Source: Escherichia phage vB_EcoM-fFiEco06. Taken from it: 64,000 nt of DNA. Made by a program: the position numbers and the translations under genes. The DNA is taken from the sequence record NC_054914.1. One strand, given 5' to 3'. The notes below the pieces were generated by a model. It was not told the DNA's origin and made no database searches. It saw only the letters and a program-made list of their open reading frames with translations. The first letter of the stretch is position 1. Every line of letters begins with the position of its first letter. This document shows, one piece after another, positions 4,615 to 57,860 of this stretch.

Positions 4615-4982
4615 TTAAATTTAATGGCTTGAAGAAGACTAATAACTCTCAAGCGGCTTCTTTCATCTTTAACTGTAAAAGAAAGAGGGTCACCAGATTT
4701 CATAGTGATAGTGCATTCAAAAGCAAAACCTTCGGGAACTTCTTCGAAGAAGTCAAATTCTTCATCATATATTAGAACATTACTCTGAAAACTGTGAAGA
4801 ATTTTTCCGTCATTTCCAGATGCTGTACTAATCATTGTAACGTTATTACCTTTCATATCTTCAACGATAAATTCGCTTGTAGATATTACAGCATTAATAG
4901 AACCATTCCTATAAATAGCAGAAAATAGATATTTCTTTTCTTCACCTTCGCGAATGCGATATTTCTTACCGATTTTAAACAT
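4611..4982 (-). CDS. hypothetical protein
   Basis: 123 aa ORF; ATGA overlap with downstream ORF. Confidence 0.6.
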   Translation of the reverse strand: MFKIGKKYRIREGEEKKYLFSAIYRNGSINAVISTSEFIVEDMKGNNVTMISTASGNDGKILHSFQSNVLIYDEEFDFFEEVPEGFAFECTITMKSGDPLSFTVKDERSRLRVISLLQAIKFK

Positions 4983-14896: not shown

Positions 14897-14922
14897 AGCG
14901 CTCTCCTCTATAAGATAATTCT

Positions 14923-14952
14923 ATTATACCATACTCATTTTGGAAAGTAAAC
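14923..14952 (-). promoter_or_regulatory. early promoter
   Basis: GTTTAC-N18-TATAAT on minus strand. Confidence 0.6.
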
Positions 14953-14962
14953 CATTTAAATG

Positions 14963-14988
14963 AAAAAAGGACTCCCGAAGGAGTCCTT
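14963..14988 (-). terminator. rho-independent terminator after soc (UUCG tetraloop hairpin plus U-run)
   Basis: RNA AAGGACUCC-UUCG-GGAGUCCUU followed by UUUUUU. Confidence 0.7.
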
Positions 14989-14994
14989 GAATTA

Positions 14995-15240
14995 TTAACC
15001 ACCAGTTACTTTCCACAAATCTTCGTTTGCAGCAATCCATTCAGTACGCTGATTTTCTTCATATACAGTAGTATATGCTGCTTTTTCTGAAGGGAACGTC
15101 TGGTAATGAGCACCAGAAATTTTGTGAACGTCAGAATAAAGAGGGAAAGCTACTGAAATTTCCTTTCCTTCAATTTTCTTATTTCCATCTAATTTCTGCT
15201 CAAATGTTTTGATATTAACATAACCGCGAGTACTAGCCAT
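14995..15240 (-). CDS. soc: small outer capsid protein Soc
   Basis: 81 aa; MASTRGYVNIKTFEQKLDGNKK recalled as T4 Soc. Confidence 0.9.
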   Translation of the reverse strand: MASTRGYVNIKTFEQKLDGNKKIEGKEISVAFPLYSDVHKISGAHYQTFPSEKAAYTTVYEENQRTEWIAANEDLWKVTGG

Positions 15241-15270
15241 GTAATTCTCCTTTTATTTAAATTACATGAT

Positions 15271-15278
15271 TATTTATA
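15271..15278 (-). promoter_or_regulatory. late promoter TATAAATA upstream of soc
   Basis: minus strand TATAAATA about 30 nt upstream of soc ATG, followed by AAGGAG. Confidence 0.6.
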
Positions 15279-15308
15279 ATAAATTCTCGCGGCTTTTAAG
15301 ACGAGCTG

Positions 15309-17326: not shown

Positions 17327-17527
17327 ATGGCACAAAAATTAATGGCACTTGTTAATGCCATAAAAGGTAATAAAAAACGTATAGCTTTTACTATTTCTGC
17401 TATGGTAGGAATTTTACTCTGGAACTTTATTTTATCACCAATTGCAATTGCGCATGGTGTTAATATTCCAGTAGTTACTCTTGATACATTCGTAGATCTA
17501 GCATTTGCTTTAGTTGGGTTAATTTAA
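17327..17527 (+). CDS. small hydrophobic membrane protein (plus strand)
   Basis: 66 aa; AGGAGG Shine-Dalgarno 5 nt upstream of ATG; two hydrophobic helices; convergent with primase. Confidence 0.55.
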   Translation: MAQKLMALVNAIKGNKKRIAFTISAMVGILLWNFILSPIAIAHGVNIPVVTLDTFVDLAFALVGLI

Positions 17528-30499: not shown

Positions 30500-31186
30500 T
30501 TAAAAATCATGGGTAGAATCAGCTTCAAGAGCTACTACATAATTCGCATGTTCACCTTCAAATTTAGCAGCGCCTTGTTTACCTTTTGCCCAAAGCAGAA
30601 GTTTATAATTTCCTGGTTGCATTTTCATATTTGCCATATTGATAATGAAATTAAATGTGTTTTCACCATCATAATCACCAAGAGTCAAAGAATATTTAAC
30701 ACGAGTCAAAGCAGAATCTTCTACTTTATTAAAACCGTTAATTACGATTTTACCTTCTTTTACTGTGATAGCAATTGTATCAATCTGCAGACCGCGAGAT
30801 ACACGCAACAACTGTTGAAGGTCTTCAGCTTTAATTTCGGTAACAACAGATGCTACCGGGAATGGAATTGGTTTATTAGGAGCAACTACTGTACTCGGAT
30901 CGGCTGCTGGCCAAAAAATTGTTGAACGGGCATCAGCAATTTTAATATTTCCATCTTCTGACTGGGAAATTTCTGCATCATCATTAACTAGCGACAGAAT
31001 ACCGAGAAAACCGTTCAAATCGTAAATTGCTACATCAAAATCAATAACGTCAGAAATATTTGCTTCCGCGTAAGTTGTACCATTAACTGCGCGAGTCATA
31101 ATAAATTGACCGGATTTAAGCATAATGCCAGAGTTAATAGTAGCGAAATTTTTAAGCAGAGCAGTAGTATCTTTAGACAGTTTCAT
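30500..31186 (-). CDS. 45: sliding clamp
   Basis: 228 aa; recalled as T4 gp45. Confidence 0.9.
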   Translation of the reverse strand: MKLSKDTTALLKNFATINSGIMLKSGQFIMTRAVNGTTYAEANISDVIDFDVAIYDLNGFLGILSLVNDDAEISQSEDGNIKIADARSTIFWPAADPSTVVAPNKPIPFPVASVVTEIKAEDLQQLLRVSRGLQIDTIAITVKEGKIVINGFNKVEDSALTRVKYSLTLGDYDGENTFNFIINMANMKMQPGNYKLLLWAKGKQGAAKFEGEHANYVVALEADSTHDF

Positions 31187-31241
31187 GTAATTTCCTTCAA
31201 TTCAAATGAGATTTAATTTTATAACTAATTTAATAAAGCAA

Positions 31242-31631
31242 TTAACGATTAAAATCAGCCGCAATTGTTTCCGCAACAATTTGAGCAGCAACAATTAGAC
31301 GTTCATCTGCATTACCGCAATAATCATCTTCAAGACGTTCACCACATGAAGTCATAATAAATTTAGCACCGGCGTTTAGGGATTCTGTAGTATGTTTGCG
31401 CATTAGTTCAATCCATTTATTACTTACTTCACGATCGATAGCTTCATAATACGCATGACGAGCAGGTGCAGATTTAATTTTGTTCTGAATAACTTCCATT
31501 GCGTTATCAGAAAGAGACAAAACCCATGCTCGACGAATTTTATTTTGGTTTTGTGGATTTGATTCAGAACGCACGTGTTTTGGCTGAATATCTTTTACAT
31601 CAACAGTATAATTCACAGTAATTTTAGTCAT
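31242..31631 (-). CDS. rpbA: RpbA-like RNA polymerase-binding protein
   Basis: 129 aa; symbol by size and position next to gene 45. Confidence 0.55.
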
Positions 31632-31640
31632 AATACACCT

Positions 31641-31832
31641 TTAGTCATAATAATCAGTAACAGTCCAAGCTTCATTTCTATTGGACATTATTTTTGTATA
31701 TTCTGCTTTAAATGCATTCCTAAGCATAGATTCAGTAACTATATGCTCTTCATTAGAAAAATTATTTCTCAGAATATATCGTTTTATTTCAGGAATAGTT
31801 AATAGATGCTGTCCAGTTGAATATTCTGCCAC
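31641..31832 (-). CDS. hypothetical protein
   Basis: 63 aa ORF. Confidence 0.5.
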   Translation of the reverse strand: MAEYSTGQHLLTIPEIKRYILRNNFSNEEHIVTESMLRNAFKAEYTKIMSNRNEAWTVTDYYD

Positions 31833-31842
31833 AATTCCTCCG

Positions 31843-31850
31843 TATAAATA
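31843..31850 (+). promoter_or_regulatory. late promoter TATAAATA (plus strand) upstream of HNH endonuclease
   Basis: exact TATAAATA 34 nt upstream of ATG, followed by AAGGA Shine-Dalgarno. Confidence 0.6.
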
Positions 31851-31883
31851 TGTTTATCACTCGCTGTATCAAAAGGATATGTT

Positions 31884-32600
31884 ATGAATTATAAACTAAT
31901 TTATGAAAAGTTAATCTCTAATGCTAAATCTCGAAAACTTGATTGCTATACTGAATCTCATCACATTATACCACGCTGTTTAAATGGCAGCGATGATGCT
32001 TCAAACTTAGTAGATTTAACACCAGAAGAGCACTATGTAGCTCATCAACTTTTAGTAAAAATTTATCCTTCTGAACCAAAATTAGTCTATGCTGCTAACA
32101 TGATGACAGTTTCCACGAAATACGCTAAACGCAACAATAAAACTTTCGGTTGGATTCGTCGTAAACTCTGGGAAATAGAAAAGAACAAAGAATTCTCCCA
32201 GGAGACACGAAAGAAAATGTCTGATGCAGTAGCTAATAAAGCAAGACTAACTTGTCCTCATTGCGGTAAGTCTGGATTAAGCGGGAATATGAATCGTTGG
32301 CATTTTGATAACTGTCCAAATCACCCTAATCCTAAAGTTAGACCACCAATGTCTAAAGAACACAGAAATAATATCTCAAACGGGCTTAAAGCAATCGTTC
32401 TTGAAGAAACATCCTGCGAATTCTGCGGAATGATAGGCAAGAAATGCGTTATCGCAGCGCATAGAAATTTCTGCAAGAAAAATCCAAATGGACGCAAGAA
32501 AACTGAAAAGACTGGTACTTGCGTCCATTGTGGTAAAGTTACCACTTTCGGAAATTTATCAAGATGGCATAATGATAACTGTAAATATAAACCTAGCTAA
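31884..32600 (+). CDS. HNH homing endonuclease with three C-terminal zinc-finger-like repeats
   Basis: 238 aa; HNH motif ESHHIIPRCLNGSDDASNLVDLTPEEHYVAH; three CxxC...H..C repeats; only long plus-strand gene, convergent with gene 46. Confidence 0.8.
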   Translation: MNYKLIYEKLISNAKSRKLDCYTESHHIIPRCLNGSDDASNLVDLTPEEHYVAHQLLVKIYPSEPKLVYAANMMTVSTKYAKRNNKTFGWIRRKLWEIEKNKEFSQETRKKMSDAVANKARLTCPHCGKSGLSGNMNRWHFDNCPNHPNPKVRPPMSKEHRNNISNGLKAIVLEETSCEFCGMIGKKCVIAAHRNFCKKNPNGRKKTEKTGTCVHCGKVTTFGNLSRWHNDNCKYKPS

Positions 32601-34281
32601 TCTTAGCTAAACTAAATCTACCAACTTTTTCCATTTGAATATGCTGACCATATTCTTGTGGGTCATGGTCTTTATGCGAAATTATGAAGAAGTTGGTATC
32701 CTTCAAACCATCTAAAATTTTAGCTACATTTTTAATACCTTCAGCATCAAATGCACCGTCATACACTTCATCAAGAAATAAACAACTTATTTTAACACCT
32801 GAAACTTTTTCAGCAATATCACGCCAAGTAAATAAAAGAGCAATATCAATTCGTGCTTTTTCACCTTGACTGAATGAAGCATAACTAAAATCTTCGCGAC
32901 CACGGGATTTAATTGTCTCATTAAATTCTTCATCTAATGTAAACACATAATCCGCTTCCATTATTTTAAGATAATGGTTAATCTGCTTATTAAATAATGG
33001 AATGTACTTTTTAATAATAGCACCTTTAATACCAGAATCTTTGAGCATATCAGTCAAAATTCCTCGGTGGTATTTTTCCATTACTAAATTAGTTTTTGTC
33101 TTAACAATTTTATCAAGTTCTTCTTGAAGCAGTGCTATTTCATCAGCATGGTCAATAAACTCAGAAGATGCTTTTTCTATAGCCGCTTTAACCTTTTTAG
33201 CTTTATCTACTGCTGCGATCAGAGATTGCTTTTTATTGCGAATATCATTTGCTAACGACTGTTGGGTTTTAATATTATCTCGGTATTCATCAACAAGAAC
33301 TTTTAAATTATCACGATGTGTTGAAAGCTGTTCAAACGAATGCGTACATTCAGAAACTTTATCTTTAATTTTAGAAACAACTTTATCACCGGAACTCAAT
33401 TGTGACAAACAGGTTGGACATAATCCACCTTCGTGATACATATTAATGACTTTATTATACGAGTCAATTTTTGATTTAATTAAAACTGCTTCTTGACCGA
33501 TTTTATTAAATGCATCAGTCGGGTCTTCATCTAAAACAATATTAACTAATCTTTCATTAGCTTCTTCTATTTCCGATTTTAGCGTTCTAGCTTCTTTTGC
33601 CAAATCATCATACATATTTTGCAGACGAGTAAGATTGTCACCCGTTAATTTTTTCTGGCGTTCAACGTTATCATTATATATTTTAATTTGTTGGATAATA
33701 CTATCTTTTTTAACGTCAAGCACTTGGTTTTGTGAATTTAATTCACGTATTAGTGCTTTATTAAGCTTATCCATTTCAGCTAATGTTCCTACCTCAAGCA
33801 GGTCTTCCACAAGCTTTCTTCGCGCAGGGGTCGACAAACCCATGAAAGGGGTATACCCTGCTGTACCAAGGACAACAATCTGCTTGAAACTGGCATATGA
33901 CATTCCGATAAGCTGTTCAAATTCTGCTTGGAAATCTTTACTGCTGGCAGATTCATTAAGACGTGTACCGTTAACGGTGATTTCAAAAACGTTCGGTTTT
34001 TGTCCTCTTTTGATATAGTACTTTTTCTCATCATATTCCATCCACAGTTCAACTAAAAGTTCTTTCTTATTTGTGCTGTTTATTAATTGACCTTTCTTTA
34101 CATCACGAAATGGCTTGCCAAAAAGCCCAAATGTGATGGCTTCTAGCATAGTAGACTTACCACCGCCATTTCGTCCAGTAATAAGAGTTTTTTGAACCTT
34201 ATCTAATTGAATGTCAATAGGATTTCCACCTACTGACATTATATTTTGATACCTAACTCGGTTTAGTTTAAAATTCTTCAC
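32593..34281 (-). CDS. 46: recombination endonuclease subunit (Rad50/SbcC-like)
   Basis: 562 aa; Walker A GRNGGGKST; recalled as T4 gp46; track start codon GTG. Confidence 0.9.
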   Translation of the reverse strand: MKNFKLNRVRYQNIMSVGGNPIDIQLDKVQKTLITGRNGGGKSTMLEAITFGLFGKPFRDVKKGQLINSTNKKELLVELWMEYDEKKYYIKRGQKPNVFEITVNGTRLNESASSKDFQAEFEQLIGMSYASFKQIVVLGTAGYTPFMGLSTPARRKLVEDLLEVGTLAEMDKLNKALIRELNSQNQVLDVKKDSIIQQIKIYNDNVERQKKLTGDNLTRLQNMYDDLAKEARTLKSEIEEANERLVNIVLDEDPTDAFNKIGQEAVLIKSKIDSYNKVINMYHEGGLCPTCLSQLSSGDKVVSKIKDKVSECTHSFEQLSTHRDNLKVLVDEYRDNIKTQQSLANDIRNKKQSLIAAVDKAKKVKAAIEKASSEFIDHADEIALLQEELDKIVKTKTNLVMEKYHRGILTDMLKDSGIKGAIIKKYIPLFNKQINHYLKIMEADYVFTLDEEFNETIKSRGREDFSYASFSQGEKARIDIALLFTWRDIAEKVSGVKISCLFLDEVYDGAFDAEGIKNVAKILDGLKDTNFFIISHKDHDPQEYGQHIQMEKVGRFSLAKIS

Positions 34282-57852: not shown

Positions 57853-57860
57853 TATTTATA
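57853..57860 (-). promoter_or_regulatory. late promoter TATAAATA upstream of rI cluster
   Basis: minus strand TATAAATA 26 nt upstream of the ATG at 57827. Confidence 0.5.

Follow-up and report, generated by a model that had tools for sequence, protein, structure and literature searches.

The nick that the T4 homing endonuclease MobE introduces into nrdB, not far from its own gene, is strand-specific and HNH-dependent, and MobE is over-inherited in crosses; its host is spared by polymorphisms at the site, and flanking sequence is co-converted (PMC2790892). Attempts to clone MobE failed with several expression vectors (PMC2790892). The mobE gene lies between nrdA and nrdB, is promoterless and co-oriented with nrdA, and is limited by an internal terminator (PMC2790892). 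In T4, every homing endonuclease gene has the orientation of its neighbours apart from segD, which has no identifiable promoter (PMC2988022). As for the nuclease domain, MobA-E have been placed in His-Me finger group 1 with McrA and Cas9, and not with I-HmuI (PMC5714182). Here we analyze a homing endonuclease gene (hereafter HEG) that lies in reversed orientation between genes 45.2 and 46 in a 64,000-nucleotide stretch (the window) of Escherichia phage vB_EcoM-fFiEco06 (NC_054914.1). The analysis indicates that HEG is real and probably active as a homing endonuclease, and we put at roughly 0.78 the probability that it belongs, as a free-standing homing endonuclease gene, to the T4 Mob family, is expressed late and acts on the HEG-less allele of gene 46.

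HEG resembles mobE in several respects. The two proteins are homologous over their full length (238 residues, 35% identity by tblastn against phage genomes), in each an N-terminal HNH domain is joined to a DNA-binding region at the C-terminus, and both genes lie between conserved genes, are variably present in T-even phages and are accompanied by polymorphism in the adjacent essential gene. However, HEG, which is known from sequence, is reversed, has its own conserved, putative late promoter, occupies the 45.2/46 site, has gene 46 as its presumed target and overlaps the gene 46 stop. The segD gene, like HEG, runs opposite to the surrounding genes, but it encodes a nuclease of another family (GIY-YIG) and has no identifiable promoter, whereas the late promoter motif of HEG is canonical and conserved, and its ribosome site is good. 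The reversed orientation and own promoter of HEG depart from a trait that is typical, not defining, of the Mob family. I-TevI shares with HEG an endonuclease-specific late promoter directly upstream and a modular tail with zinc-binding elements (predicted in HEG); HEG, in contrast, does not lie in an intron and has neither a homing-site-like operator nor a predicted hairpin sequestering the ribosome-binding site (RBS), and I-TevI has only one finger, a Cys4 element in its spacer, while the HEG tail is a predicted array. I-HmuI (PDB 1U3E) also joins an HNH nuclease to an extended modular DNA-binding tail, and it provides a precedent for nicking, but it belongs to His-Me finger group 2 and the Mob proteins to group 1 (PMC5714182). 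I-HmuI was not recovered in sequence or fold searches with HEG.

HEG is an ordinary kind of element that is already annotated in public phage records, and its discovery is not new. RB32ORF054w and its orthologues in, among others, RB33, RB51, RB68, slur07 and teqhad are the same gene at the same site, with at least 95% protein identity in about 58 GenBank records. The RB32 orthologue was annotated in 2006, as 'homing endonuclease, similar to mobB', and the label 'homing endonuclease' is used in many records; HEG goes unmentioned in the review of T4 mobile elements from 2010. RB68-type copies differ from HEG only at the last few codons and the junction, where the overlap with gene 46 is 4 nt instead of 8 nt. 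Two features appear to set HEG apart from MobE: the reversed orientation with an own late promoter, and a predicted array of C2HC fingers.

Family membership and insertion polymorphism

Sequence matches identify HEG as a member of the T4 Mob-type free-standing HNH family, with an N-terminal HNH domain and a distinct C-terminal DNA-binding region. The protein belongs to PHROG 655 'homing endonuclease' (E = 8.6e-69) and, besides its full-length match to MobE, is 53% identical to the MobD N-terminus over the first 70 residues in the same tblastn searches; a large protein collection holds 2278 homologues at E <= 1e-10. The HNH motif reads ESHHIIP...SNLV...EEHYVAH, and in an alignment of 29 homologues the residues E24, H26, H27, P30, G35, N41, H50 and H54 are invariant. 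The family profile aligns this stretch to the HNH of EcoKMcrA (E = 5.8e-4), and NCBIfam gives a partial match to the IscB HNH region; these matches fit the published group 1 placement of MobA-E. An AlphaFold2 (AF2) model computed from the alignment has a mean predicted local distance difference test score (pLDDT) of 88 and shows, in the HNH region, strands at 24-27 and 42-45 followed by a helix at 47-60. The ratio of nonsynonymous to synonymous rates (dN/dS) is 0.08 against RB68 and 0.13-0.20 against orthologues of 58-64% identity, for which dS is near saturation; with values this low, HEG must be maintained by selection. The HNH motif and homing endonuclease identity had been proposed in a first-pass annotation of the window, and the motif is confirmed while the identity is supported by PHROG 655 and the MobE homology.

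The C-terminal 70 residues of HEG match PHROG 12324 'intron-like DNA endonuclease', and the orthologues in RB32 and RB33 carry the label 'site-specific intron-like DNA endonuclease', as would suit an enzyme encoded by a group I intron within a host gene. However, genes 45.2 and 46 are both complete and uninterrupted and lie on the strand opposite HEG, and no Rfam family, group I introns included, was found in 31000-33600, where the sole match scored 21.5 bits (a chance level) against a gathering score of 86.7. The Rfam scan and the intact flanking genes refute a group I intron context as far as sequence analysis goes, and we regard an intron-encoded enzyme as exceedingly improbable.

T4 has no HEG, and its spacer between the gene 46 stop and 45.2 is 55 bp. 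Compared with T4, the window is 100% identical over 31560-31826, and the identity breaks exactly at codon 2 of 45.2 (GTG GCA GAA vs ATG GAA). On the other side, gene 46 is near-identical to that of T4 over about 470 codons but has 26 amino acid changes in its last ~90 residues. This patch of about 250 bp is 17-21% diverged, with 9-14 mismatches per 50 nt versus 0-2 elsewhere; the divergence is heaviest at ~32690-32840, and identity is restored by ~32896.

The presence or absence of HEG across T-even relatives, a comparison that the first-pass annotation had proposed, was counted in several ways with concordant results. The whole 2-kb interval is present in 58 of 531 matching records, mostly Tequatrovirus (the denominator varies from 499 to 531 depending on the probe), and the protein at 95% identity or above is likewise found in 58 records. 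A 240-bp probe for the gene 46 patch gives a bimodal distribution, with 58 records at 95% or more and all others at 82.5% or less. When the probe covered the 3' half of HEG together with the patch, the match was contiguous in 57 records at 95.4% identity or more, and the HEG-bearing record outside this count is Ac3, whose deposited DNA is synonymously recoded. Retrieval of IMG/VR loci by the gp46 C-terminus gave 36, and in 35 of these gene 46 has 45.2 as its immediate neighbour, so the empty site is the common state and presumably the ancestral one. The view of HEG as a mobile-element insertion, also advanced in the first pass, agrees with its absence from T4 and from these 35 T4-like loci and with its variable presence among near-identical genomes.

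Two records deserve separate mention. In Ac3 (L124, OK040907.1, 1601-3908) the HEG protein is identical to that of RB68 while the DNA is 76% identical from the HEG start through gene 46; the changes are essentially all synonymous and towards GC, and the sequence looks recoded or back-translated, not naturally diverged. PV654520.1 (H41/H196; 142 kb), named 'Pseudomonas phage vB_PSGBLB0006' with P. aeruginosa as host, has HEG at 100% protein identity and T4-like flanks at ~99%; for a Tequatrovirus-like genome this host label looks doubtful.

A second filled/empty pair is formed by Escherichia phage F2, whose HEG is 58% identical to that of the window, and the closely related HEG-less contig L093. 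Their left flanks are 97.6% identical up to codon 2 of 45.2, where the HEG-carrying genome has an extra Ala codon. On the right flank, the first ~50 nt of gene 46 are nearly alike, a patch with 15-17 mismatches per 50 nt extends from 61 to 208 nt from the gene 46 stop, and the sequences then return to ~99% identity. For the linked patch of the IME281-like lineage (L102/L006), no close HEG-less relative was present among the fetched loci, the best being 72% identical. The HEG-less Tequatrovirus KMB22 (L126, OR539217.1, 1400-1900, corresponding to window 32613-32896) has the HEG-type patch from ~32659 onward, whereas its spacer and the final ~45 nt of its gene 46 are of T4 type; KMB22 is thus a natural recombinant, with the crossover in the conserved IISHKDHDPQEYGQH coding stretch. 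In the HEG-less T4-like IMG/VR contigs L089 and L090 (2300-2600) the spacer is T4-type and the 3' end of gene 46 is of a third allele (…KINTLILDEVFDSATDVEGVKAISTILDSL…), so that the 3' part of gene 46 is mosaic even without HEG.

The site itself is conserved in diverged phages. Orthologues of HEG are found in Yersinia phage MHG19 (63% identity), F2 (58%), an IME281-like phage (64%), and in Klebsiella phages, namely Squirrel and three IMG/VR contigs (42-44%). All of them are flanked by the homologues of 45.2 and 46, to which they run opposite, and their reading frames overlap the gene 46 stop by 4-14 nt; the overlap is annotated in RB68, MHG19, F2 and Squirrel. In F2 (MN864145.1, L005 4889-5711) a 'MobD-like homing endonuclease' is annotated directly on the other side of gene 46, which is thus bracketed by two HNH homing endonuclease genes.

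This distribution bears on whether HEG still moves. A Mob-like nuclease that was acquired once, long ago, and is no longer mobile could have been domesticated, as a phage-exclusion function or a DNA-binding regulator, or could be kept only since its deletion would harm the 3' end of gene 46. Such a history would agree with left and right boundaries that are identical in all Tequatrovirus carriers; plain recombination in the interval does occur, as HEG-less KMB22 demonstrates, and in every lineage the HEG reading frame takes in the last codons and stop of gene 46, which would select against deletion. Because of this overlap, an imprecise deletion of HEG would truncate or alter gp46, and the overlap may help to retain the gene. 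Against a loss of mobility, however, none of the catalytic residues varies, dN/dS stays at 0.08-0.2 across the entire protein, the DNA-binding tail included, and HEG's own late promoter is conserved. What is more, a single genus has at this one site two HEG alleles that are just 58% identical, and each is accompanied by a diverged gene 46 patch of its own, as predicted for repeated invasion of a conserved target. We therefore consider an immobile HEG unlikely and favour an element of the Mob family that is still mobile.

A tblastn search of the 64-kb window detected no second Mob-type paralogue of the HEG protein. Five places match it in T4T genome-wide, and nrdD of the window phage (41932-43749) is annotated as one uninterrupted coding sequence; homing endonuclease genes are far scarcer in this region of the window phage than in that of T4.

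The locus and its putative late promoter

The window is 100% identical by megablast, at the same coordinates, to bases 1-64000 of Escherichia phage vB_EcoM-fHoEco02 (MG781191.1, genus Tequatrovirus). There HEG is annotated as HE2_053, 'HNH endonuclease', between HE2_052 (gp45.2 homologue, 31641-31832, minus strand) and HE2_054 (gp46 homologue, 32593-34239, minus strand). The open reading frame (ORF) of HEG starts with ATG and encodes 238 residues (31884-32600, plus strand), and a Shine-Dalgarno sequence, AAGGA, lies 6 nt 5' of the ATG at 31873-31877. The start codon is fixed by the N-terminus MNYKLIYEKL, which is common to all homologues (M1, Y3 and Y7 are invariant in the 29-sequence alignment). 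The features of the locus are listed here with their coordinates in the window.

31827..31842, minus strand: left junction, with replaced gene 45.2 start codon and ribosome site (GTG GCA GAA here, ATG GAA in T4)
31843..31850, plus strand: late promoter element TATAAATA, an exact match; gp55-dependent -10 box by motif, with a predicted start ~6-8 nt downstream
31851..31883, plus strand: 5' leader with Shine-Dalgarno AAGGA, conserved among orthologues
31884..32600, plus strand: free-standing Mob-type HNH homing endonuclease gene, from PHROG 655, MobE homology, dN/dS and AF2 model
31941..32048, plus strand: HNH (beta-beta-alpha-Me) catalytic core, residues 20-55, with E24, H26, H27, N41, H50 and H54
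32190..32234, plus strand: NUMOD3-like helix, residues 103-117, SQETRKKMSDAVA; sub-threshold in Pfam, PF07460 in many homologues
32253..32315, plus strand: putative zinc module 1, C124-x2-C127-x12-H140-x3-C144, by motif; predicted beta-beta-alpha
32355..32393, plus strand: second NUMOD3-like helix, residues 158-170, from the AF2 model
32415..32474, plus strand: putative zinc module 2, degenerate, C178-x2-C181-x11-H193-x3-C197, by motif; predicted beta-beta-alpha
32520..32582, plus strand: putative zinc module 3, C213-x2-C216-x12-H229-x3-C233, with invariant ligands; conserved across the wider family
32593..32600, both strands: convergent overlap of the HEG and gene 46 ORFs, 8 nt, from the ORF coordinates
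32601..32896, minus strand: HEG-linked diverged 3' end of gene 46 (Walker B / D-loop / H-loop of the Rad50/SbcC-like gp46), by comparison with T4

The first-pass annotation had called HEG the only long gene on the plus strand, placed an exact late motif 34 nt upstream, inserted the gene between the gene 45 region and gene 46, and had the HEG stop overlap that of gene 46. HEG is indeed the longest plus-strand ORF of the window, the runner-up with an ATG being a 138-residue shadow ORF antisense inside gene 45; apart from HEG, the first 50 kb of MG781191.1 contain one plus-strand coding sequence, of 66 residues (17327-17527). The motif is also where it was said to be, the last base of TATAAATA lying 34 nt before the A of the ATG. 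As to the position, the insertion stands but the left neighbour is 45.2, and both rpbA and 45.2 separate HEG from gene 45. The overlap, too, needs rewording: the convergent HEG and gene 46 ORFs do share 32593-32600, and the gene 46 stop with its last two sense codons falls within the HEG reading frame, but the stop codons lie side by side (gene 46 CTA, i.e. TAG, at 32593-32595; HEG TAA at 32598-32600) and are not superimposed.

Since HEG is reversed with respect to the early/middle transcription unit around it, its expression must come from a promoter of its own. In three diverged orthologous loci (L004, L005 and L006) TATAAATA is found 41-53 nt upstream of the ATG, and in Klebsiella-type loci CTTAAATAG or CCTAAATAG occupies the promoter position. 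The leader that follows is conserved as well, in the form TTTATC..GCTGTATCAAA(T)AAGGA or, in the Klebsiella version, GGTATCTAACGG.C.ATCAAAC; it holds two (T/G)TATC repeats (window 31851-31883; L003-L009) and is conserved though the proteins are only 42-64% identical. With TATAAATA conserved in this way, late expression of HEG from its own promoter is the best inference.

The number of motif copies gives a different impression. The window has 4 copies of TATAAATA on both strands, compared with 10.4 +/- 3.3 expected from shuffled sequences, so that the motif is depleted and by count not statistically enriched. If TATAAATA arose here by chance in AT-rich DNA, the reversed gene, having no co-directional transcription, would be a silent ORF, for which T4 segD, a reversed homing endonuclease gene without an identifiable promoter, offers a precedent (PMC2988022). 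We find this very unlikely. The motif recurs at a conserved distance in the orthologues of 58-64% identity, with a conserved leader and Shine-Dalgarno sequence, and the HEG coding sequence is under purifying selection; the genome-wide depletion of TATAAATA, which fits selection against stray late promoters, also makes each kept copy likelier to be functional. The support for the putative late promoter of HEG thus comes from conservation in orthologues, not from the motif count.

The other copies of TATAAATA are at 4910 on the plus strand, antisense to annotated genes, and on the minus strand at 57853 and at 15271, before soc. An intact soc gene (81 residues, MASTRGYVNIKTFEQKLDG...) lies at 14995-15240 (minus strand), 31 nt behind the copy at 15271-15278; MG781191.1 leaves 14897-15308, a span that includes this gene, without annotation.

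No terminator was detected on either strand near 32600, where a weak palindrome, TAGCTA-ATCT-TAGCTA (32594-32609), is the only structure; the next terminator-like site on the plus strand past HEG is at 33215-33229. Late transcription of HEG would hence continue into gene 46 in the antisense direction. At the HEG/gene 46 junctions of F2 (L005 3195-3235) and the IME281-like phage (L006 3700-3740) there is a GC-rich 7-bp hairpin, AAGCCTC-ATTAA-GAGGCTT, with T-rich flanks, which looks like a bidirectional terminator. Two regulatory devices known from related genes were sought. An I-TevI-style operator in 31836-31886 is rejected, the best match to the T4 empty site, with both strands compared, being 14 of 20 positions and equal to shuffled controls. 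An RBS-sequestering hairpin as in mobE or I-TevI found no support, since the strongest fold predicted for the probable late RNA has only -2.8 kcal/mol.

The T4 46/45.2 spacer (L002 5248-5302), when read in the direction of 45.2, contains ATGCTTTAA, 11 nt and TATAAT, which looks like a MotA-box middle promoter, and it also has a 9-bp inverted repeat, AGAGATTAT...ATAATCTCT. The promoter-like sequence and the repeat are both missing from the HEG-bearing genome, in which 45.2-rpbA must therefore rely on other promoters.

Predicted zinc modules in the DNA-binding tail

The AF2 model places the N-terminal HNH domain at residues ~1-100, the NUMOD3-like helix at 106-117 and a further helix at 158-170, with beta-beta-alpha modules at 121-143, 175-199 and 210-232. 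The protein would thus begin with an HNH nuclease, followed in order by a NUMOD3-like helix, one zinc finger, another helix and a pair of zinc fingers. The first-pass annotation had described three tandem CxxC...RWH.DNC repeats; three modules are present, but RWH.DNC is confined to the first and third. Module 1 (residues 124-144) is CPHCGKSGLSGNMNRWHFDNC and module 3 (213-233) is CVHCGKVTTFGNLSRWHNDNC, both with RWH.DNC, whereas module 2 (178-197), CEFCGMIGKKCVIAAHRNFC, has CEFCG...AAHRNFC in its place. The module 3 ligands C213, C216, H229 and C233 are invariant in the 29 homologues. All three modules are predicted as beta-beta-alpha at pLDDT 85-95, module 1 (pLDDT ~90) with strands at 121-123 and 130-132 and a helix at 133-143, and module 2 with strands at 175-177 and 184-186 and a helix at 187-199.

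The ligands are spaced C-x2-C-x12-H-x3-C in modules 1 and 3, with x11 in module 2, in keeping with the C2H2-type spacing C-x2-4-C-x12-H-x3-5-(H/C). In spacing, each module thus corresponds to a classical C2H2 finger that has Cys in place of the final His (C2HC). The top Foldseek matches of the model are the finger arrays of CTCF and ZFAT, with E >= 0.05, and the HEG profile has a weak sequence match to the CCHC domain of Nanos (E = 0.0056). Pfam zf-C2H2 gave no match for the HEG protein, and a sub-threshold one for the orthologue P0023; finger arrays of this type in Mob proteins were not described in the literature searched. Only tentatively, then, do we suggest that the tail may be a natural counterpart of the zinc-finger nuclease design, in which three C2HC fingers, alternating with the NUMOD3-like helices, would steer an HNH nickase to the Walker B/D-loop segment of gene 46; as a model, we think this possible but doubtful.

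Proposed mechanism, target zone and implications

By analogy with MobE and MobA, we propose that on co-infection with a HEG-less relative the enzyme would nick or cut the HEG-less allele. Recombinational repair from the HEG-carrying genome would then copy HEG, together with the linked diverged end of gene 46, into the recipient, and the gene would be inherited in super-Mendelian fashion. The sequence differences in the gene 46 patch would protect the HEG-carrying genome. The likeliest target is within the last ~60-250 bp of gene 46, in the region coding for Walker B to the H-loop. We propose ~32660-32880 because this segment differs between HEG-carrying and HEG-less genomes in both filled/empty pairs and is retained by KMB22; the probable target is thus this part of gene 46, which codes for the Walker B, D-loop and H-loop motifs. 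A target at the extreme 3' end of gene 46 had been suggested by ATGAAGAAAGT, which is present in 0 of 7 HEG-carrying and 26 of 36 HEG-less loci (Fisher p = 6e-4, the loci not being independent). However, F2 and L093 share that stretch and differ further in, which weakens this candidate, as does KMB22.

Several points weigh against the interpretation of HEG as a late-expressed Mob-family element homing into gene 46. The target zone is one that we infer from the comparison of alleles. A literature search found no experimental work on this HEG, be it on cleavage, nicking, inheritance or transcripts, only database annotations. The patch boundaries are shared by all Tequatrovirus carriers, and the distribution could reflect one old acquisition and ordinary recombination instead of ongoing homing. 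The late motif is not enriched by count, as described above. In Pfam, HEG does not reach the gathering thresholds of HNH (PF01844; 16.9 vs 21.4 bits) or NUMOD3 (12.6 vs 20.4 bits), and structure searches with the whole model gave no significant match. The orthologues P0002, P0016 and P0023 are likewise below the PF01844 threshold; the Mob clade is poorly fitted by this Pfam model, so that HEG is assigned to the HNH nucleases by its motif and by matches in PHROG and PDB. PF07460, in turn, is present in many HEG homologues.

The current understanding of homing endonucleases is unchanged by HEG, which would not surprise a specialist in those of phages. Few free-standing endonucleases of T-even phages allow a target to be proposed, and HEG joins them as a well-delimited member; the two independent filled/empty pairs and the recombinant KMB22 are ready substrates for mapping the cut site. 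The probable site lies in the part of gene 46 coding for Walker B to the H-loop, and break repair itself depends on this gene. HEG is also a clean example of a reversed homing endonuclease gene bringing its own putative late promoter, and in inserting it replaced the spacer upstream of 45.2, which in T4 holds what looks like a MotA-type middle promoter. If the zinc-finger reading is true, a predicted late transcript antisense to gene 46 and the stop overlap that would lock the element in place would add to the interest of the locus, and the tails of the Mob family, if they do contain a C2HC finger array, may be of interest as compact modular DNA-recognition units.

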